64,000 nt of DNA. It comes from Candidatus Levybacteria bacterium RIFCSPHIGHO2_01_FULL_40_16 (GTDB lineage: Bacteria; Patescibacteriota; Microgenomatia; Levybacterales; UBA12049). The stretch's first letter is position 1, and every line of letters starts with the position of its first letter. This document shows positions 19,658 to 64,000 of this stretch, in pieces. Below the pieces are notes generated by a model, which saw only the letters and a program-made list of their open reading frames with translations, searched no databases and was not told where the DNA came from. The position numbers and the translations under genes were made by a program. The DNA lies in assembly GCA_001783805.1 (NCBI GenBank), contig MFNS01000001.1:128649-192648 (forward strand), given 5' to 3'.

Positions 19658-20218
19658 TTAATTATGCGGGTTATTAACCACCCCCATCCTGTTTAGCGGC
19701 CAGTAAACGAAAAAAGATCTCCCAACAATAGATCTAAGCGGAACAAAGCCCCATTCTCTGGAGTCCGAACTGCCATTCCTATTATCACCCATAACAAAAT
19801 ATGAGTCCGCAGGCACCAGCACACTGGCATTCTCTTTAAGAAATGATCCTCCATAGGTTTTTACGGAAGAAGGTAGATACTCATTCTGGTTAAGAAGCTG
19901 TTCGTTTACATAAACATCTCCGTTTCTGACCATTATTCGATCTCCCGGAACCCCTATCACGCGTTTTATATAATCTTTTTCAGAGTCATTTGGCGCCTTA
20001 AATACGATAGTATCCCCATATTTCGGCTGACCGAATTTGAGAGCAATTATATTGGTTAAAACGTATTGTTTATCAAGGAAGGTTGGATACATGGAATTTC
20101 CACTGACTTGAAATGGACGGAATAAAAAAACATATATCACCAGAAAGACTGCAAAAACCAAAAGCAGGGTTTGAATTGTATCCAGTAAGAAACCATAAAT
20201 TTTTCTTAAAAATTCCAT
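19658..20218 (-). CDS. lepB: signal peptidase I
   Basis: SPase I boxes GNSMYPTF and GDNRNGSSDSREWGFVP. The ORF was trimmed to the internal ATG at 20218, because the longer ORF would read through the tRNA locus. Confidence 0.85.
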   Translation of the reverse strand: MEFLRKIYGFLLDTIQTLLLVFAVFLVIYVFLFRPFQVSGNSMYPTFLDKQYVLTNIIALKFGQPKYGDTIVFKAPNDSEKDYIKRVIGVPGDRIMVRNGDVYVNEQLLNQNEYLPSSVKTYGGSFLKENASVLVPADSYFVMGDNRNGSSDSREWGFVPLRSIVGRSFFVYWPLNRMGVVNNPHN

Positions 20219-20283
20219 AAAACTATTGTGCTTGATTTGCTTTCCTTTGTCAATGCGAAGCGGATGTTGTAAAATGGTGTTGA

Positions 20284-20467
20284 GGACCCGTGGTTCAGTG
20301 GTAGAACGCTTCATTCACACCTGCCCGACTTTGTGAATGGACTTGTAGTTCAGAGGTAGAACGCTCGCTTCACATGCGAGAGCTCGATGGTTCGAGTCCA
20401 TCCAAGTCCACACAAAGTCCAGTCAGGCGGGTTGAAGAGGTCAGAGGTTCGAATCCTCTCGGGTCCA
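20284..20467 (+). tRNA. interrupted outer tRNA-Val(CAC)-like gene with a 112-nt insertion at anticodon-loop position 37/38
   Basis: The two halves form a perfect cloverleaf, so both halves are clearly tRNA-derived. It is uncertain whether the outer gene is expressed or spliced.
- Acceptor GGACCCG/CGGGTCC.
- D-arm GTTC-AGTGGTA-GAAC.
- Anticodon stem CTTCA/TGAAG, loop TTCACA|T.
- T-arm AGAGG-TTCGAAT-CCTCT.
- 5' half 20284-20319, 3' half 20432-20467. Confidence 0.5.
20339..20410 (+). tRNA. tRNA-Val (anticodon CAC), complete, nested inside the insertion
   Basis: Manual cloverleaf: acceptor GGACTTG/CAAGTCC, D-arm GTTC-AGAGGTA-GAAC, anticodon stem CTCGC/GCGAG with loop TTCACAT (CAC), variable AGCTC, T-arm GATGG-TTCGAGT-CCATC, discriminator A. 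No encoded CCA. Confidence 0.85.
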
Positions 20468-20469
20468 CT

Positions 20470-21270
20470 GTGGATATATGCTTGATTTGTAAGACAGAAG
20501 ATAAATATCCTCTTTGTAGGAAATGCGCTAAAAAACCTTTTTTGGTTGAAAGAGCAAGGCAAATTCTCGCCAGCATAAGCGATCTTGATTCACTAAGGAA
20601 GATGTACGATTCAAAATATGCCGAAATCAAAAATTTAAATACGTCTTCTTTCTGGAACAGCAAGTTACAGGAATCAAAGCTGGGCAAACAGGACGGCATG
20701 ACTAAAGATAGGGTGAAAACAGCATTCGGATTTTTGCCAAGAAACGCCAAAAGGGTTTTAGATATTGGTGCGGGAAATGGATTTATTGAAGAATTGTTGA
20801 ACCGGAAGAATGTTAAAATCTTTGGCAATGATATCTCGGACGTTTCTATCAAAAATTTGAAAAATAGATTTAGGGGTCAATTCCGCAAGGAGTCAATCTA
20901 CAGAATGAGGTATTCAAAAAGATTTTTTGATGCTATTTTTGCTCTTGAGGTGTTGGAGCACGTTGCGCCAAGCAAGATCTTTAATTCTCTGAAGAAAATT
21001 AGAAAAATTTTAAGGATTAATGGATCGCTCATAATCTCGGTTCCCACAAATGAGGGTTTGGAGAAAATGAAAAACAATCCTAGCGGACACACCAGAACTT
21101 ATACGGAGAATCTAATAAGAGCCGAGTTAAAGATTGCAGGCTTCAAAATTCTCAAACTAAAAACATTATACGCTTTTAAGAGTTTTTATGGTTTTAAGAA
21201 AATTTCCTCAAAAATTCTGCGAAACAGGTGGAAGCCCAATGATATAGTTGTTTTGGCAAAAATTGCATGA
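20470..21270 (+). CDS. class I SAM-dependent methyltransferase with N-terminal Cys4 zinc ribbon
   Basis: The listed ORF 20374..21270 begins inside the tRNA locus, so it was trimmed to the GTG at 20470. N-terminal CLICK...CRKC. Methyltransferase motif I VLDIGAGNGFIEELL and motif block LIISVP. Confidence 0.65.
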   Translation: MDICLICKTEDKYPLCRKCAKKPFLVERARQILASISDLDSLRKMYDSKYAEIKNLNTSSFWNSKLQESKLGKQDGMTKDRVKTAFGFLPRNAKRVLDIGAGNGFIEELLNRKNVKIFGNDISDVSIKNLKNRFRGQFRKESIYRMRYSKRFFDAIFALEVLEHVAPSKIFNSLKKIRKILRINGSLIISVPTNEGLEKMKNNPSGHTRTYTENLIRAELKIAGFKILKLKTLYAFKSFYGFKKISSKILRNRWKPNDIVVLAKIA

Positions 21271-43094: not shown

Positions 43095-43196
43095 ATAAAT
43101 TCATTCTTGTATTTCATATAGTTTACTAACTTGTGCTTGTTAATGCAACAGGTTACTTGCTTTGCGTCTAACGGATTTGAGATAATAACCAACATT

Positions 43197-44306
43197 ATGT
43201 TCAAGAGGATAGTCAGTCCCATTCTTGACAGACTTGATTCGGAAACATGGCATAATCGGGCGCGCGAACTTCTTCATTTGTCTGAGATTTCTCCTTTTAC
43301 ACTTAAACTATTAGAACTATTTGCCTATAAAGGGAAAAGGATTTTCAATGAAAGGCTAAAAGTTAAGATAGAGGATATAGAATTTGATAATCCGCTTGTT
43401 GTCGGAGCGGGCTGGGATAAGGTAGGCCGCGCAGTTAAAGCTCTTTATAGATTGGGATTCGCAGGTGTTGAGGTAGGTACGGTTCTTCAATATCCCCAGC
43501 CTGGAAACGCTAAGCCAAGACAATTCGTGCTCGCACCGGGAGTGGCCTTGAATAGATTGGGGTTTAATAGTCCGGGAATGAATATTGTTGCCAATAATTT
43601 AAAAAGATATAAAAACGGCAGCGCCGTTGTCGGAGTAAGTATCGGGAAAAATAAAAATGTGCCGAAGAAAGATGCTCCGAAAGCCCACAGCGCAGTTATT
43701 AAAAAATTATATAAATATGCAGCTTTTTTCGTGATAAACGTCTCTTCCCCCAATACTCCGGGGCTTCGTCAATTACAGGATAAGGCTCCTCTCGCTAAGA
43801 TTGTTAAAGCTATAAACAGGGCGATGGATAAAGTTGGGAAAAGAAAACCCCTATTCGTTAAAATCGCACCTGATTTAACAAATAGTGCCGTAGACGATGT
43901 TATAGAAGTAGTGATTGAAAATAAATTAACAGGAATAGTAGCTACTAACACTACAAACAATTCCGACATAAAAGCAAAATATGGTGAAAAATGGAGGAAT
44001 CAAATGGTCGGAATAAGCGGAAACGATAAAGATTTTAGACAAATGGCTACCGATAAAATCGCCTACATCTACAAAAAAACAAGGGGAAGAATTAAAATAA
44101 TCGGCGTAGGCGGAGTCAACGATACAAAATCAGCACTGGAAAAAATTATGTCAGGAGCAAGCCTTCTTCAAATTGTTACCGGCATTCGAGGTGAAGGCAC
44201 TTCTTTGCCCGGAAAAATTAATCAAGGAATTTTAGATTATCTGGATAAAAAAGGGATTGAAAATGTTGAGAGAATTGTGGGAATACGCGCCAAAAAATTA
44301 CATTAA
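43197..44306 (+). CDS. pyrD: dihydroorotate dehydrogenase (Ser-base, class 2-like)
   Basis: N-terminus MFKRIVSPILDRLDSETWHNRARELL parallels the PyrD N-terminus. Has NSPGMN and INVSSPNTPGLR (catalytic Ser) motifs. Start placed at the internal ATG 43197; the listed ORF starts at 43131. Confidence 0.8.
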   Translation: MFKRIVSPILDRLDSETWHNRARELLHLSEISPFTLKLLELFAYKGKRIFNERLKVKIEDIEFDNPLVVGAGWDKVGRAVKALYRLGFAGVEVGTVLQYPQPGNAKPRQFVLAPGVALNRLGFNSPGMNIVANNLKRYKNGSAVVGVSIGKNKNVPKKDAPKAHSAVIKKLYKYAAFFVINVSSPNTPGLRQLQDKAPLAKIVKAINRAMDKVGKRKPLFVKIAPDLTNSAVDDVIEVVIENKLTGIVATNTTNNSDIKAKYGEKWRNQMVGISGNDKDFRQMATDKIAYIYKKTRGRIKIIGVGGVNDTKSALEKIMSGASLLQIVTGIRGEGTSLPGKINQGILDYLDKKGIENVERIVGIRAKKLH

Positions 44307-61764: not shown

Positions 61765-63531
61765 TTACATTTTTATCCATTTTATAAAATCTTCAAATTC
61801 CAAGGTATTAATTATATCACTTTTTGTTGCCCAACCCCGTCTTGCCATTGCTACACCATATTTCATGAGATTCATTTGGCGAACTTCATGGCTGTCGGTG
61901 TCGATTATAAGTTTAACTCCATTCTTAACTGCTTCCATAATTAAGGGATCGGGTAAGTCAAGTCTATTCGGCCAGCTGTTAATTTCCAAGGCTTTATTAT
62001 TTTTTTTGCAAAAATCAAAAATTTGGTCAAAATCCAATTCATATCCAGGACGTTCGTTAAGCATTCTTCCCGTAGGATGCGCAAGGATTTTTGCTTTTGG
62101 GTGACTTAATCCTGCCAAAACTCTCTTCGTCATCTCTTGCTTATTCGTTGAAAACGAACTATGAATCGAGACAATTGCGCCATCAAGAAGCTCCAGTGAT
62201 TTATCGTCAACAGCAAGTTTTCCCGAGCTCAAAATATCTATTTCGAGTAATTTAAATATTTGAACATTTTTAATACTCGAAGAAATGTGTTCAATATATT
62301 CATTTCTTCTTGCAATTAGAGAGTATATTTCATCTTTACTATGCATAGAAATGCTCGGATTATGCTCGGAAAAACCAAGATATTCGTATTTTAGTTTTTT
62401 TGCGTATTCAGCCATTTCCTTGATGTCTGTTTGGCCAAGATCATGGCTTGGCTCAATAGGAAAGTTGGAATGAATATGCAAATCCCCCTTGATATCCGAC
62501 AACTCAACTAATTTGGGAAGCTTGTGTTGAATGGCAAGCTCAATTTCGCCTTTGTTTTCCCTCATTTCCGGCGGAATCCAACTCATCTCCAGAAAATTAT
62601 AAAATTTCTCTTCAGTAGCGTATTTCATGAGCTTTCCATTTTTTTTCAGGTCTTTTATTCCTCGTTCCGAAAGCGAAAGGCCTTGCTTTAAAGCATACTC
62701 ACGCAGGCGCACATTATGGTCTTTGCTGCCCGTGAAGTGTTGTAAAAGTGCTCCAAAGCCTGCGGGAAACGCAACCATGAGATCGATTTGCCTGCCGCCG
62801 GATGTTAATATTGAAGCTGTTTCAGAACCTTGTTCAACAACTCTTTCTTTGTAGGGATAGGCAACAAAATGCGCTATGGCTTCCTTGGGACTGCTTGTTG
62901 TCACAGCGATGTCAATATCACCGATTGTAGGCATCATTCGCCTAATGCTACCTAAAGGAATAGCCTCAATTATTGCAGGAGATTGTTTTAGATAGGAAAT
63001 AATTTTTTCTGCGATTTCAGTTGCAAACGGAAGGATCATTCTGGTGGTTTTTCCTTTGCCTTCTTTATATTCAAAAAGAGCCCTAAGTATATCCTGTTCC
63101 GATTTTTCCCCAAAAGTTGGAATTTTGGCAATTTGGTGATTTTTAGCCTTGATAATTAGGTCTTCGATAGCGGTTTCGGGATTATTCAGTGACAATTTCT
63201 TAGCCAATTTGTAGGCTTTTTTGGGACCGATGGAAGGAACGTACATTAAGACAAAAACAGATTTTGGTATTCCCCTTAGAACAGCATTGAAGTGGGAAAC
63301 TGATCCTTTTTTGAATAATTCTTCCAGCCTTGATTGGATGGTCGCGCCTATGCCTGGAAGAGTTTGTAATTTTCCTTCTCTATATATGTCCTTAATCTCG
63401 GTCGTAGAGGACGCAATTGCCTCCGAAGCTTTTTGATAAGCTAAGATTTGAAAATAAAATTTCTTACTGTCTTTGATTGAATAGGCCGCGGCAACCTGCC
63501 TGAAAAGGCGAGTTATTTCCTGATTACTCAT
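61765..63531 (-). CDS. polX: family X DNA polymerase with C-terminal PHP domain (PolX)
   Basis: N-terminal HhH/pol-beta-like region (GIGATIQSRLEE, GSIRRMMPTIGDIDI nucleotidyltransferase Asp pair). C-terminal PHP motifs GDLHIHSNFP, FSEHNPS, IDTDSH. Confidence 0.85.
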   Translation of the reverse strand: MSNQEITRLFRQVAAAYSIKDSKKFYFQILAYQKASEAIASSTTEIKDIYREGKLQTLPGIGATIQSRLEELFKKGSVSHFNAVLRGIPKSVFVLMYVPSIGPKKAYKLAKKLSLNNPETAIEDLIIKAKNHQIAKIPTFGEKSEQDILRALFEYKEGKGKTTRMILPFATEIAEKIISYLKQSPAIIEAIPLGSIRRMMPTIGDIDIAVTTSSPKEAIAHFVAYPYKERVVEQGSETASILTSGGRQIDLMVAFPAGFGALLQHFTGSKDHNVRLREYALKQGLSLSERGIKDLKKNGKLMKYATEEKFYNFLEMSWIPPEMRENKGEIELAIQHKLPKLVELSDIKGDLHIHSNFPIEPSHDLGQTDIKEMAEYAKKLKYEYLGFSEHNPSISMHSKDEIYSLIARRNEYIEHISSSIKNVQIFKLLEIDILSSGKLAVDDKSLELLDGAIVSIHSSFSTNKQEMTKRVLAGLSHPKAKILAHPTGRMLNERPGYELDFDQIFDFCKKNNKALEINSWPNRLDLPDPLIMEAVKNGVKLIIDTDSHEVRQMNLMKYGVAMARRGWATKSDIINTLEFEDFIKWIKM

Positions 63532-63594
63532 AAACCCATTCTAAGTTATTGTTGTATAGAATTCAATTATTTGTTAAAATAGGTAAGGAAGCGA

Positions 63595-63806
63595 GGGGCC
63601 GTAGCGCAATTGGTTAGAGCGGAACGTAAAACGTTCCAGGCCTCCCTGCTTGCCCCGTAAGATTGCGGGGAAATGGGCTCGTAGTGAAGTTGGTCTATCA
63701 CGTCTCCCTGTCACGGAGAAGATCGCCGGTTCGAATCCGGTCGAGCCCGCAATCTGTGGGGTCACGGAGGAGGTTGCGGGTTCGAGTCCCGCCGATCCCG
63801 CAGCGT
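63595..63806 (+). pseudogene. degenerate outer tRNA-Asp-like gene split by an insertion that carries the functional tRNA-Asp
   Basis: The 5' part GGGGCCG-TA-GCGC-AATTGGTTA-GAGC-G then an extra hairpin GGAACGTAAAACGTTCC, then CCTCC-CTG. The 3' part (G)TCAC-GGAGG-AGGTT-GCGGG-TTCGAGT-CCCGC-CGATCCC-G parallels the inner tRNA-Asp 3' half. The acceptor halves are imperfectly complementary. The inner tRNA is bracketed by inverted repeats CCCC..GATTGCG and CGCAATC..GGGG. Confidence 0.35.
63675..63749 (+). tRNA. tRNA-Asp (anticodon GUC), complete, nested inside a degenerate tRNA-Asp-like gene
   Basis: Manual cloverleaf: acceptor GGGCTCG/CGAGCCC, D-arm GTGA-AGTTGGTCTA-TCAC, anticodon stem TCTCC/GGAGA with loop CTGTCAC (GTC), variable AGATC, T-arm GCCGG-TTCGAAT-CCGGT, discriminator G. 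Confidence 0.85.
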
Positions 63807-63829
63807 AATACCTCAAAATATTTCAGCTA

Positions 63830-63858
63830 TTGCCTTTTTAAAATAATAGTTGTATAAT
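63830..63858 (+). promoter_or_regulatory. near-consensus sigma70-type promoter (TTGCCT-N17-TGnTATAAT)
   Basis: -35 TTGCCT at 63830-63835, a 17-nt spacer, and an extended -10 TGTTATAAT with TATAAT at 63853-63858. Lies upstream of the ATG at 63896. Confidence 0.45.
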
Positions 63859-63895
63859 CCTGCCACAAGAACTGCCTCGAATAAAAATGCTTCTA

Positions 63896-64000
63896 TGCCA
63901 AAAATAAATAAAAAGTCCAGGAGAAAAACTGTAAAGGCAAAAATACAGAAAGATATACAAAAAGGAATTGTAAGTCGCTTGAGGTTTACAGAATCATACA
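63896..64000 (+). CDS. partial CDS (5' end only), basic N-terminus MPKINKKSRRKTVKAKIQKD...
   Basis: ATG at 63896, about 37 nt downstream of the predicted promoter. Lys/Arg-rich N-terminus, possibly a small ribosomal or nucleic-acid-binding protein. Runs off the window end. Confidence 0.3.

Follow-up and report, generated by a model that had tools for sequence, protein, structure and literature searches.

A tRNA-Asp gene nested within the anticodon loop of a resident tRNA-Asp gene in a Levybacteria genome, with counterparts at tRNA-Val and tRNA-Gly genes

We describe a bacterial tRNA gene that carries a second, complete tRNA gene with the same anticodon inside its anticodon loop. In the window, a stretch of 64,000 nt from contig MFNS01000001.1 of Candidatus Levybacteria bacterium RIFCSPHIGHO2_01_FULL_40_16, the tRNA-Asp(GTC) gene at 63595-63800 has its anticodon loop interrupted by a 113-nt insert composed of a 26-nt arm, a complete tRNA-Asp(GTC) gene and a 12-nt arm complementary to the first. 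The insertion is precise and without target duplication, nesting recurs at Asp, Val and Gly(CCC) genes, and the outer genes decay in some lineages. We consider it probable, though far from settled, that a cassette bearing a cognate tRNA displaced the resident gene, with the inner gene expressed from the resident promoter and the outer one persisting as a relic. Few genes are as conserved and as vertically inherited as those for tRNAs, and in Patescibacteria each is usually present as a single copy.

The host belongs to the Levybacteria, has a small genome and comes from groundwater. The locus is neighbored by genes for PolX and a LysM protein. The bacterial, Patescibacteria/Levybacteria character of the window shows in its DnaE, GatCAB, LepB and MurT and in PolX homologues that bear the name Levybacteria. 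The elements of the locus, all on the forward strand, are as follows.

63571..63580, + strand: TG-extended -10 box (TTGTTAAAAT), promoter-like, 14 nt upstream of the outer gene; function inferred
63595..63621, + strand: outer (resident) tRNA-Asp nucleotides 1-26/27 (acceptor 5′ strand, D-arm, nucleotide 26), syntenic with uninterrupted genes
63622..63640, + strand: secondary insert (GAACGTAAAACGTTCCAGG), 19 nt; its hairpin is perfect (7 bp, loop AAA), and CAGG comes after it
63641..63648, + strand: outer anticodon-stem 5′ strand CCTCC with C32, U33 and G34, placed by alignment to intact orthologues and by the ARAGORN fold of the joined halves
63649..63674, + strand: insert left arm (CTTGCCCCGTAAGATTGCGGGGAAAT), pairing with the right arm, its final AT directly before the inner +1
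63675..63749, + strand: inner tRNA-Asp(GTC), foreign 'type B' and presumed working gene
63750..63761, + strand: insert right arm (CAATCTGTGGGG), defined by its pairing with the left arm
63762..63800, + strand: outer tRNA-Asp nucleotides 35-73 (remainder of the anticodon loop, anticodon-stem 3′ strand, variable loop, T-arm, acceptor 3′ strand, discriminator G)
Outer exon joints, if spliced (RNA letters): CCTCCCUG to UCACGGAGG; GAGCG to CCUCC; whole, GAGCG to CCUCCCUG to UCACGGAGG

The initial annotation of this stretch had placed a clean tRNA-Asp(GTC) at 63675-63749 between tRNA-derived flanks, with the insertion in the anticodon loop near positions 33-35, an extra perfect hairpin on the 5′ side and a long-range stem enclosing the inner gene, and each of these elements withstood further analysis. 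ARAGORN and Rfam return a single tRNA-Asp(GTC) call at 63675-63749/50, with 67.4 bits against an Rfam gathering score of 29. Comparison with empty sites sets the insertion point at 33/34 or 34/35, the ambiguity amounting to one G; filled and empty sites differ by a clean insertion (ambiguity ≤1 nt), and no target-site duplication was found. The second, 19-nt insert lies at outer position 26/27. By repeat search, its hairpin (GGAACGT/ACGTTCC, 7 bp) is perfect, the long-range stem joins 63645-63669 to 63746-63770 (25 nt, 76% complementary), and the outer 3′ part (63762..63800) forms an 81% direct repeat with the inner gene. The nested unit folds better than its shuffled counterparts (z = -2.6). 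The insert arms are mutually complementary and GC-rich but imperfect as terminal inverted repeats, and the cassette has the same orientation as the resident gene. No further copy of the 19-nt hairpin was found in the 64-kb window or in 375 loci, and the arm words are neither enriched as a dispersed repeat in the window nor present in further copies there or in the 375 loci.

The inner gene meets the criteria for a functional tRNA-Asp (cloverleaf score, anticodon and identity elements) by sequence, its expression being inferred. It carries the anticodon GUC together with G73, C38 and G10, which are identity elements of bacterial tRNA-Asp. Identity to the outer gene is only 73%, the stems differing through paired changes, and reaches 89% with the resident tRNA-Asp of L157, a distant lineage (PolX 48% identical); the inner gene's type matches the tRNA-Asp of more distant lineages. 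Judged from these comparisons, the inner gene is of a foreign type. A viral or phage source was rejected, no inner-gene or junction copy adjoining tRNAs having been found in viral and phage collections: exact matches to inner 3′ ends gave 0 hits there, junction words occurred only at chance sites with no tRNA nearby, and blastn against INPHARED returned generic tRNA matches only.

The flanks, in turn, match real tRNA-Asp genes. With blastn-short, the 5′ flank (63595-63621) is identical at 27/27 positions to nucleotides 1-27 of the uninterrupted tRNA-Asp of L128, and the 3′ flank at 39/41 positions to nucleotides 35-75 of those of L153 and L146 (E values of 4e-11 and 1e-14). Once 63622-63640 and 63649-63761 are removed, ARAGORN folds the joined halves as tRNA-Asp(GTC) with one C5xA68 and one G12xA23 mismatch; masking the inner gene lets ARAGORN -i recognize an intron-containing tRNA at exactly 63595-63801. 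Masking is needed for the outer gene to be seen, since on native sequence ARAGORN with intron options finds inner genes only; applied as a scan to tRNA-dense phage loci, it produced heterologous false positives, so only same-anticodon calls were trusted. A tRNA-Asp gene lies directly upstream of PolX in about 30 related loci and is uninterrupted at this syntenic spot in L127, L128, L159, L209, L210 and L212. L128 and L212, intact orthologues in which the 19-nt hairpin is missing, each share 93% identity with the joined halves. Alignment and synteny thus identify the outer halves as the ancestral, orthologous resident tRNA-Asp.

The outer gene had been taken for a decaying copy, and this reading stands only in part. 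Uninterrupted genes of relatives share the D-stem mismatch (GCGC/GAGC), the AATTGG D-loop and the G4.U69 pair, which are therefore lineage features, not decay; only the hairpin insert and C5xA68 are peculiar to the outer gene. Most of its apparent defects are thus shared with intact orthologues, and together with the arms it is 98% conserved in two species, although decay of the outer gene is clear at four related loci (L129, L150, L170 and L202).

An assembly chimera, or flanks that merely resemble tRNA by chance, can for practical purposes be dismissed. Six independent assemblies (NCBI, ENA, JGI) agree in every one of the 280 nt surrounding the locus, and the same nested unit occurs in a second species (L208, GCA_015661365.1; PolX 81% identical), which rules out the uniqueness to one assembly that had been named in advance as a refutation. 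The flank matches (27/27 and 39/41) and the ARAGORN call on the joined halves speak against an artefact as well; repeat collapse in assemblies of metagenomic origin is possible in principle, and no support for it was found. Between the window and L208, the nested unit (outer halves, hairpin, arms) is 98% identical, while the sequence just outside it is about 45% diverged or unalignable. The inner gene (75/75) and the 19-nt hairpin are identical, the left arm differs at one position (25/26), and the right arm of L208 has a 3-nt insertion (ACT) that lengthens its pairing with the left arm. The L208 outer gene has T5-A68 at pair 5-68, giving a perfect acceptor stem; it is 96% identical to L212 and looks mosaic, L212-like outside nucleotides 12-47 and window-like inside. 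Such conservation amid diverged flanks calls for selection on the outer parts or for a lateral spread that was recent, alternatives that this comparison is unable to tell apart for the outer gene. It counts against a neutral relic, which under vertical inheritance would be expected to have accumulated differences.

The window contains a sister locus with the same organization.

20284..20467, + strand: outer tRNA-Val(CAC), in halves 20284-20319 and 20432-20467
20320..20431, + strand: Val insert, 112 nt, made of an arm (20320-20338), an inner tRNA-Val(CAC) (20339-20410) and an arm (20411-20431)
Outer Val exon joint, if spliced (RNA letters): UUCACA to UUGAAG

Here the outer gene is split exactly at 37/38. 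Its joined halves form a flawless tRNA-Val according to ARAGORN, which recovers the outer gene with -i after the inner one is masked, and they are identical at 71/73 positions to an empty site in L213. The differences between inner and outer stems are again paired changes, and 8 nt separate the outer +1 from an upstream promoter (TTGTCA-17-TAAAAT). The nested Val unit also folds better than its shuffles (z = -5.3). Three copies of AGTCCA extend over the inner 3′ end and right arm, and an 8-bp perfect complement joins the outer exon end to the left-arm end. Standard annotation gives the inner gene alone at nested loci, and ORF callers extend protein genes over the outer halves, as at the Val locus.

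Relatives were collected by a PolX scan of a genome collection, which gave one, and by a metagenome scan with PolX alignment, which was far more productive. Among about 85 tRNAs in relatives' loci we found four further nested or relic cases, three at tRNA-Gly(CCC) and one at tRNA-Asp. In L129, a Gly gene of type X lies within one of type Y whose sequence carries C34T and two stem mismatches; in L170, type X lies within a type Z gene with a deletion in the T-stem and an 18-nt hairpin inserted in the D-loop; in L150, the cargo is type Y and the host type X, truncated in its 3′ half; and in L202, a type B tRNA-Asp is accompanied by an 11-bp inverted repeat, the sole remnant of type A being a 3′ relic. 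The outer gene is thus mutated or truncated in all four and the inner gene intact in every case, and the reverse, decay of the inner gene beside an intact outer one, was not found in relatives' loci. Leader-trailer complementarity of at least 8 bp is confined to nested tRNAs. The initial annotation had argued from the Asp and Val loci to a specific process, and had proposed a survey of relatives and a search for sequence conserved between the insertions. The argument is supported by filled and empty sites at both loci and by the recurrence in relatives, and the Asp, Val and Gly inserts have in common a CYTGC at the 5′ junction and an RGG at the 3′ end. The three Gly loci moreover have homologous arms despite swapped cargo and host types. 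Together, these shared motifs and homologous arms suggest, as far as sequence comparison can, a sequence-specific function of the arms that we cannot name. The insertion positions vary (33-35, 35-37, 37/38 and 26/27), no target sequence common to the inserts was found, and syntenic tRNA types switch between close relatives (Asp A/B; Gly X/Y/Z). A generic signature of two T-loops 30-55 nt apart proved unspecific, with more than 120 hits in viral contigs that we presume, without verification, to be mostly att-type duplications; none of these hits was a same-anticodon nested case.

Several established processes were weighed as sources of the nesting. Tandem or segmental duplication was rejected on identity (inner to outer 73%, outer to orthologues 93-96%, inner to L157 89%), as was a derivation from three tandem genes with deletions, the retained halves being complementary to the nucleotide at five loci. 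Integrase-type att duplication was likewise discarded: there is no kilobase element, no recombinase in the window or its flanks and no duplicated core. Phages, ICEs and archaeal plasmids and viruses that integrate into tRNA genes do resemble the present case, in that incoming DNA disrupts a tRNA gene and supplies a functional substitute, with tRNA fragments left behind (PMC3293823); theirs are kilobases long, with an integrase, a hybrid gene and a displaced fragment, whereas here 113 bp bring a whole tRNA and leave both halves in place. We accordingly judge it very improbable that the locus is the footprint of a prophage or ICE with a replacement tRNA segment, or of a tandem tRNA duplication followed by deletions. 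Elements of this kind are generally known to target the anticodon loop, reportedly recognized as an integration sublocation since the work of Williams in 2002, and to leave partial tRNA copies. Pairs of T-loops spaced by 30-55 nt are also frequent in viral contigs, and an archaeal example of element-driven tRNA disruption exists (PMC3293823). None of this accounts for an insert of only 113 bp with no integrase nearby, for resident halves that are both kept and abut the insert exactly, or for the lack of inner-gene or junction copies adjoining tRNAs in viral and phage collections. Duplication is further opposed by an inner gene that is complete and of a different type, and halves that complement each other exactly at five loci are not what two independent deletions would produce.

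A new kind of bacterial intron would make the outer tRNA-Asp functional, its 19-nt and 113-nt pieces being removed by unknown protein or RNA machinery that recognizes arm structure or motifs, and one transcript would then yield two tRNA-Asp. The arms do bring the exon ends together, the Val insert lies precisely at 37/38, where archaeal and eukaryotic introns canonically sit, and the CYTGC and RGG junction motifs are common to independent inserts, small hairpins included. The perfect Val outer gene, the perfect acceptor stem of L208 and the 98% conservation of outer gene, hairpin and arms across two species with diverged flanks point the same way, and tRNA-gene introns are unusually common in Patescibacteria (PMC13011429). 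We nevertheless find this reading quite unlikely. Splicing of the nested inserts is doubtful because outer genes decay in relatives (L129, L150, L170, L202) beside inner genes that are all intact, the reverse never being found; the non-tRNA sequence is only 37-40 nt and the insertion positions differ; and neither a BHB motif, at any of the five inserts tested, nor a group I or other ribozyme family could be detected, Rfam at E≤10 giving tRNA only.

The comparison with protein-spliced introns rests on the definition of the BHB motif as a 4-bp helix between two 3-nt bulges holding the splice sites, with the relaxed forms hBH and HBh′ (PMC4090602). Both topologies and both junction readings were tried on five inserts, the placement of the cut within the bulge being our own inference, and 0/5 combined 4/4 central pairs with both flanking helices. 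Minimum free energy folds of the inserts give continuous stems or internal loops rather than a BHB, and no splicing endonuclease (EndA/TSEN) or RNA ligase was found within 64 kb plus 10 kb of genome. Archaeal tRNA introns span 11-129 nt, can number more than one per gene, occupy non-canonical positions such as 25/26 and have ends that pair (PMC4090602). The inserts resemble archaeal and eukaryotic introns in lying in the anticodon loop (Val at 37/38), in a length of 112-113 nt that falls within the archaeal range, in paired ends that unite the exons and in numbering more than one per gene, and they share with the Haloferax-type tRNA-Trp intron a functional small RNA nested inside, there a box C/D RNA (PMC4090602). 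They differ from archaeal introns in having a bacterial host, no BHB, hBH or HBh′ at any junction, and a complete same-anticodon tRNA as cargo. In split and permuted tRNA genes (Nanoarchaeum, Caldivirga, Cyanidioschyzon), halves separated in the DNA are reunited by complementary flanks. The likeness to the separated outer halves is plain, but those genes, of archaea and algae, need BHB cleavage and ligation. Bacterial 23S rRNA intervening sequences, long stems excised by RNase III from a stable RNA without religation, offer a bacterial precedent, although a tRNA cut in its anticodon loop and not religated would not decode.

Group I introns were excluded for want of a core, the Rfam search at 63400-64000 (E≤10) and at seven related loci (gathering threshold) giving tRNA only. 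A group I core (P3-P8) typically takes at least 200 nt, and 75 of the 113 nt of the Asp insert are tRNA. Read as 33/34 (CCCU/G...GGG/G), the Asp junction would fit the group I 5′ exon U, paired as U.G in P1, and the terminal G of such introns; the last nucleotide of the 5′ exon is A37 in Val and C in the Gly genes, and all inserts end in G. Group I introns are known from anticodon loops of Patescibacteria, at 35/36 in tRNA-Asp and tRNA-Asn, and also from Cyanobacteria (PMC13011429). They share with the present inserts the phylum, tRNA-Asp and the loop, and both hide the host gene from annotation tools (PMC13011429); unlike them, the Asp insert lies at 33-35 rather than 35/36, the Val 5′ exon ends in A rather than U, the cargo is a tRNA and only 37-40 nt are not tRNA. 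A hammerhead-like reading was also dropped, no CUGANGA/GAAA core being visible by eye. Of the three mechanisms originally put forward, duplication thus fails (73% identity, different types) and so does gain of an intron of known type (no group I core or BHB), leaving cassette insertion or homing as the best description.

Among mobile elements, MITEs and REP/RPE-like sequences come closest in being short, non-coding, terminally complementary in inverted orientation and inserted inside RNA genes. They differ in that the present inserts show no target duplication, no common target, no further copies (window, 375 loci) and a cognate tRNA as cargo; the lack of a target-site duplication and the imperfect complementarity of the arms speak against a MITE- or IS-type element. 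Dada transposons target tRNA and snRNA genes (PMC8869645), but they are eukaryotic and encode a transposase.

No dedicated element need be involved if the nesting arose incidentally, through recombination or repair involving the resident gene and a homologous tRNA gene acquired from a related species, for instance by template switching or illegitimate joining at the anticodon hairpin, with arms made of tRNA-end, leader and trailer scraps and subsequent spread by homologous recombination through the tRNA halves. We hold this to be unlikely, yet still to be reckoned with. It agrees with syntenic type switching between close relatives, with the mosaic look of the L208 outer gene, with the AGTCCA repeats and the 8-bp complement at the Val locus, and with the failure to find a mobility gene in the 64-kb window. 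At L170, the right arm ATTGCGGG is identical to the outer leader joined to the 5′ start (p=0.003), and the left arm is similar to the outer 3′ end with its trailer (p=0.024). The test reached significance at L170 alone and not at the other five loci, so that as a general account of the arms this origin is no more than a possibility. Every junction is nucleotide-precise, too, and at least five independent events with the same architecture, orientation and junction motifs are hard to obtain from unguided repair errors.

Displacement of the resident gene by a cassette remains the explanation we favor. A cassette of about 113 bp, made of a foreign-type tRNA-Asp(GTC) and two complementary arms, would enter the anticodon loop of the resident gene, which we describe as single-locus with the rest of the genome unchecked. 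The resident promoter would then drive a single long precursor that includes the inner tRNA: the insert itself supplies no promoter, no promoter-like site having been found inside the Asp or Val inserts, and the -10 box, whose function is inferred, is the sole promoter-like element available to the inner Asp tRNA. This box is kept upstream of nested and uninterrupted tRNA-Asp genes in L208, L209 and L210. In the precursor, the paired arms would isolate the inner cloverleaf from the outer halves, and RNase P and RNase Z, with CCA addition, would free an inner tRNA that takes over decoding. The split outer gene would become a relic, near-intact here and decaying until it vanishes in related lineages, while nested alleles may pass between species via recombination inside the tRNA halves; the net outcome would be one tRNA gene type swapped for another at a fixed chromosomal site. 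Co-transcription, release by RNase P/Z, non-function of the outer gene and interspecies spread are inferred in the absence of RNA data, and no transposase, integrase, reverse transcriptase or homing endonuclease was found in the 64-kb window. The flawless Val outer gene, the perfect acceptor stem of L208, the 98% conservation of the nested unit between the window and L208 and the arm motifs shared across inserts tell against this cassette displacement, as does the failure to find mobility machinery in the window, a target-site duplication or a common target sequence.

In the literature on nested and intron-encoded tRNAs, on tRNAs of Patescibacteria and Levybacteria and on disrupted bacterial tRNA genes, we found no description of a tRNA gene within a tRNA gene, and the nested arrangement matches no described intron or mobile element. 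More tentatively, and as a possibility rather than an expectation, the inserts may represent an unknown class of tRNA-gene-specific element in Levybacteria and related Microgenomates, a cassette of about 110 bp with complementary arms (CYTGC ... RGG) and tRNA cargo that inserts precisely into the cognate anticodon loop, acts either as a two-tRNA intron or as a homing or replacement unit, and drives lateral turnover of tRNA types, with tRNA-targeting nucleases as a possible selective pressure. At Asp, Val and Gly genes and in several lineages, the anticodon loop appears to have been invaded repeatedly by a cassette with another version of the same tRNA. As a mobile or homing unit, this cassette would be a new and extremely small selfish or replacement element and a route by which core translation genes turn over laterally. 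Splicing of the outer gene would instead make it a new type of bacterial intron and the first tRNA-within-tRNA operon. In both cases, these loci would provide living intermediates for the origin of tRNA introns, split tRNAs and tRNA gene replacement.

In the native sequence of the nested tRNA-Asp locus, only the inner gene, the complete tRNA carried by the insert, is recognised (67.4 bits; ARAGORN, Rfam). When this gene is masked, ARAGORN (option -i) predicts an intron-containing tRNA over exactly the 63595-63800 span, and when both inserts are cut out by hand the two halves of the outer gene fold as tRNA-Asp(GTC), with mismatches C5xA68 and G12xA23 (ARAGORN). Both results support the proposal of the initial annotation that a working-type tRNA-Asp lies inside the anticodon loop of a second one. 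The complementary arms said to bracket the inner gene were recovered by a repeat search, which detected the hairpin of the small insert plus a 25-nt long-range stem, and folding of the whole unit is more stable than that of shuffled sequences (z = -2.6). The locus comprises the following elements:

63595-63800, + strand: nested tRNA-Asp unit, whole span
63595-63621, + strand: outer tRNA-Asp acceptor 5' strand, D-arm and nt 26
63622-63640, + strand: small insert GAACGTAAAACGTTCCAGG, 19 nt, a perfect 7-bp hairpin with AAA loop
63641-63648, + strand: outer anticodon-stem 5' strand CCTCC, then C32 U33 G34
63649-63674, + strand: left arm, 26 nt
63675-63749, + strand: inner tRNA-Asp(GTC), complete
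63750-63761, + strand: right arm, 12 nt
63762-63800, + strand: outer U35 C36 A37 C38, anticodon-stem 3' strand, variable loop, T-arm, acceptor 3' strand and G73

As had been suggested, the tRNA-Val locus is built in the same manner, with a split outer tRNA, arms and a complete inner tRNA:

20284-20467, + strand: outer tRNA-Val(CAC), split exactly at 37/38 by 112 nt
20339-20410, + strand: inner tRNA-Val(CAC), which together with a 19-nt arm before it and a 21-nt arm after it forms the insert

The joined Val outer halves make a perfect tRNA (ARAGORN) and are identical at 71/73 positions to the uninterrupted gene (empty site) of L213, a related locus with LepB 79% identical; paired changes in three stems distinguish inner from outer tRNA-Val. 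The outer exon end CATTCACA can pair over 8 bp, without mismatch, with TGTGAATG, the left-arm end plus inner G1, and AGTCCA occurs three times in succession, in the inner T-arm, acceptor end and right arm (regions 20312-20339 and 20395-20425), providing an alternative pairing partner for the inner acceptor 5' strand. The longest signal peptidase ORF (19658-20314, - strand) and methyltransferase ORF (20374-21270, + strand) cross the outer tRNA-Val halves, and the protein collection holds a 218-aa form of LepB (P0121, 98% identical over the query) versus 186 aa in relatives; the nested locus thus causes over-long gene calls. Between this locus and tRNA-Thr(CGT), window positions ~20470-41550 have a low GC content (0.325-0.35, versus about 0.40 elsewhere) and encode many glycosyltransferases, methyltransferases, a flippase and a Wzy-like ligase; in L213 tRNA-Val is followed by a single 400-aa gene and then the dihydroorotate dehydrogenase gene (43131-44306 in the window). 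The region looks like a variable surface-polysaccharide island with tRNA genes as borders; no integrase was found in it.

Comparison with related loci fetched through PolX places a tRNA-Asp directly upstream of PolX, in divergent orientation, in about 30 of them, and six (L127, L128, L159, L209, L210 and L212; PolX 73-80% identical) carry an uninterrupted gene at the same spot. Once joined, the outer halves share 93% identity with the L128 gene and also with that of L212. The 5' flank matches L128 at 27/27 positions and the 3' flank matches L153 and L146 at 39/41, which establishes the flanks as tRNA-derived. Identity between the inner and the outer gene (type A) is only 73%, and the inner one belongs to a second sequence type, B, with a GTGx...xCAC D-arm and the 3' part GATCGCCGGTTCGAATCCGGTCGAGCCCG. 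Type B is the resident tRNA-Asp at the syntenic site in distant loci (L145, L149, L157, L158, L170 and L202; PolX 46-53%), the closest match being L157 (89%). Judged from these sequence comparisons, the outer gene is the resident and the inner gene is foreign. The earlier view of the outer gene as a decaying copy stands only in part: its D-stem GCGC/GAGC 'mismatch', AATTGG D-loop and G4.U69 are also found in intact relatives and are therefore lineage traits, but outer genes have indeed decayed in L129, L150, L170 and L202. An origin by duplication, also put forward initially, is excluded by the low identity and distinct types of the two genes, and an integrase footprint was rejected since the insert measures 113 bp, no recombinase was found in the window or flanks, and both resident halves are kept; we regard either origin as highly improbable. 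In several lineages (L139, 6802-6899; L211, ~1380-1454; L140, L151 and L370) tRNA-Asp points the other way with respect to PolX, and in L139 the gene appears truncated past the T-loop, directly ahead of where PolX starts; rearrangements evidently occur readily at the PolX/tRNA-Asp junction.

A survey restricted to relatives' loci (about 85 tRNAs), combining BLAST of flanks against tRNAs with inspection by eye, recovered four further nested or relic cases, three of them involving sequence types X, Y and Z of tRNA-Gly(CCC):

L129, 8750-8970, - strand: nested tRNA-Gly(CCC), X within Y; outer gene with C34T and two stem mismatches
L170, 8850-9095, - strand: nested tRNA-Gly(CCC), X within Z; outer gene with an 18-nt D-loop hairpin insert and a 1-nt T-stem deletion
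L150, 6160-6385, - strand: nested tRNA-Gly(CCC), Y within X; outer 3' half truncated
L202, 9830-10000, - strand: type-B tRNA-Asp with a perfect 11-bp inverted repeat, CCCGCACAAAA/TTTTGTGCGGG, on both sides

In L202 the 3' part of a relic type-A tRNA-Asp (AGGTCGAGGGTTCGAATCCCTTCGGTCCCGCC) follows the type-B gene, the 5' half is gone, and the PolX start codon lies 45 nt upstream. The inner gene is in every case intact and shares anticodon and orientation with the outer one; the reverse, decay of the inner gene within an intact outer one, was not encountered in the relatives' loci examined. The tRNA-Gly(CCC) lies two genes downstream of tRNA-Asp, and its types alternate between close relatives; uninterrupted genes of type Z (L370) or X (L375) in close relatives of L129 indicate rapid type turnover at this site. 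The arms are homologous across the three Gly loci although cargo and host types are swapped. That nesting is a by-product of recombination or repair between incoming and resident homologous tRNA genes receives support from L170, where the arms are similar in sequence to the leader and trailer of the outer gene itself (p = 0.003, 0.024). No such likeness was detected at five other loci, and we find this origin rather unlikely.

The inserts, 107-113 nt long, share left and right arms that pair together, an AT at the end of the left arm directly before inner +1, and a CYTGC word 1-6 nt from the 5' junction (ACA|CCTGC in Val, CTG|CTTGC in Asp, CCC|CCGCCTGC or CCGCTTGC in Gly). Their 3' ends are G-rich (CGGG, GGGG, CAGG, AAGG; RGG motif); both small hairpin inserts also terminate in CAGG, and each of the two older nested loci holds a second hairpin insert. 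Insertion positions vary (33-35, 35-37, 37/38), and the compared inserts revealed neither target duplication nor a common target sequence. No promoter-like site was found inside the inserts; conserved promoters, whose function is inferred, precede the outer genes by 8-14 nt. These junction motifs, together with the flawless Val outer gene, the Val insertion point at 37/38 and a unit conserved as a whole in two species (the window species and L208), would suit a new kind of bacterial intron, with the outer gene functional and spliced. We nevertheless deem this unlikely, because outer genes are decayed elsewhere and no known splicing signal is present. A group I intron was rejected (Rfam matches tRNA only, and just 37-40 nt lie outside the cargo), as was a bulge-helix-bulge intron, as defined in PMC4090602, which failed an explicit test of both topologies at 5/5 inserts. 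Neither a dispersed MITE (no further copies in the window or 375 loci) nor a phage-borne insert (no matching copies next to tRNAs in viral/phage collections) found support. The CYTGCC word that starts the tRNA-bearing inserts also occurs in the leader of the LysM-domain gene after tRNA-Asp (63860-63885), as a tandem pair of CTGCC(C) boxes with a spacing of 5-12 nt (e.g. cCTGCCacaagaaCTGCCtcgaataaaaATG) directly before the RBS/ATG. The arrangement occurs once in the window, is conserved across many Levybacteria, being found downstream of tRNA-Asp also in L127, L133, L134, L142, L145, L147, L150, L157, L163, L209, L210 and L212, and could be an operator or RNA-binding site.

The window carries bacterial genes (DnaE, GatCAB, LepB, MurT, FtsZ/FtsA, ATP synthase), and its nearest PolX homologues carry the name Candidatus Levybacteria (Patescibacteria). 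The contig with the locus is present in NCBI assembly GCA_001782335.1, and the 280 nt around the Asp locus recur without change in six assemblies drawn from three sources. The locus is therefore no assembly artefact, and we practically discount any explanation of that kind. The same nested Asp unit is found in L208 (GCA_015661365.1, PolX 81%), so that the pattern is not limited to one assembly. Between L208 and the window the inner gene (75/75), hairpin insert (19/19) and left arm (25/26) are identical or nearly so; an insertion of 3 nt in the L208 right arm gives the arms a longer pairing, and two positions of the L208 outer gene differ, nt 49 and nt 5, the latter being a T that forms a perfect pair with A68 (T5-A68). 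Divergence rises abruptly at the outer-gene edges, directly beyond which the two sequences are about 45% diverged or cannot be aligned, and comparison of PolX places the window, L208 and the uninterrupted L209 in a trichotomy (81/80/81% identity). Over four informative sites, the L208 outer gene equals the intact L212 gene outside nt 12-47 and the window within them, a mosaic that, on sequence evidence alone, agrees with the nested allele having spread laterally through recombination inside the tRNA halves; strong selection acting on the entire nested unit stays a possibility. Directly downstream of its outer tRNA-Asp, L208 holds ~200 nt missing from the window (~2510-2730, - strand), rich in CCAGGC/GCCTGG palindromic words (CCAGGCACAAGTCTGCGCCTGGCTTCGCCAGGTACCGTATGGCGCCTGGCTACGC...) and with no Rfam match at gathering threshold.

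A full-text literature search turned up no description of one tRNA gene lying within another. The closest published counterparts are group I introns that interrupt Patescibacteria tRNA-Asp and tRNA-Asn at position 35/36 (PMC13011429), archaeal introns nesting C/D box RNA (PMC4090602) and element-driven tRNA disruption in Caldiarchaeum (PMC3293823). We class the nested tRNA as a new form of intervening sequence in a tRNA gene; that the inserts make up a distinct class of element is a genuine possibility, though the less likely one. The explanation we favour, with some reserve, is a cognate tRNA cassette in the resident anticodon loop. A cassette carrying a cognate tRNA would enter the loop, by a route unknown for the first insertion, and the resident promoter would drive the inner tRNA by co-transcription. 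The arm stem would isolate it from the two flanking halves; its release would fall to RNase P, RNase Z and CCA addition. Selection alone may account for the cognate identity and the shared orientation: where each tRNA has a single gene, an insert is viable only if it supplies a working substitute under the resident promoter. The outer gene would then be a relic decaying over time, as in L129, L150, L170 and L202, and at a fixed locus one tRNA type would have been exchanged for another.
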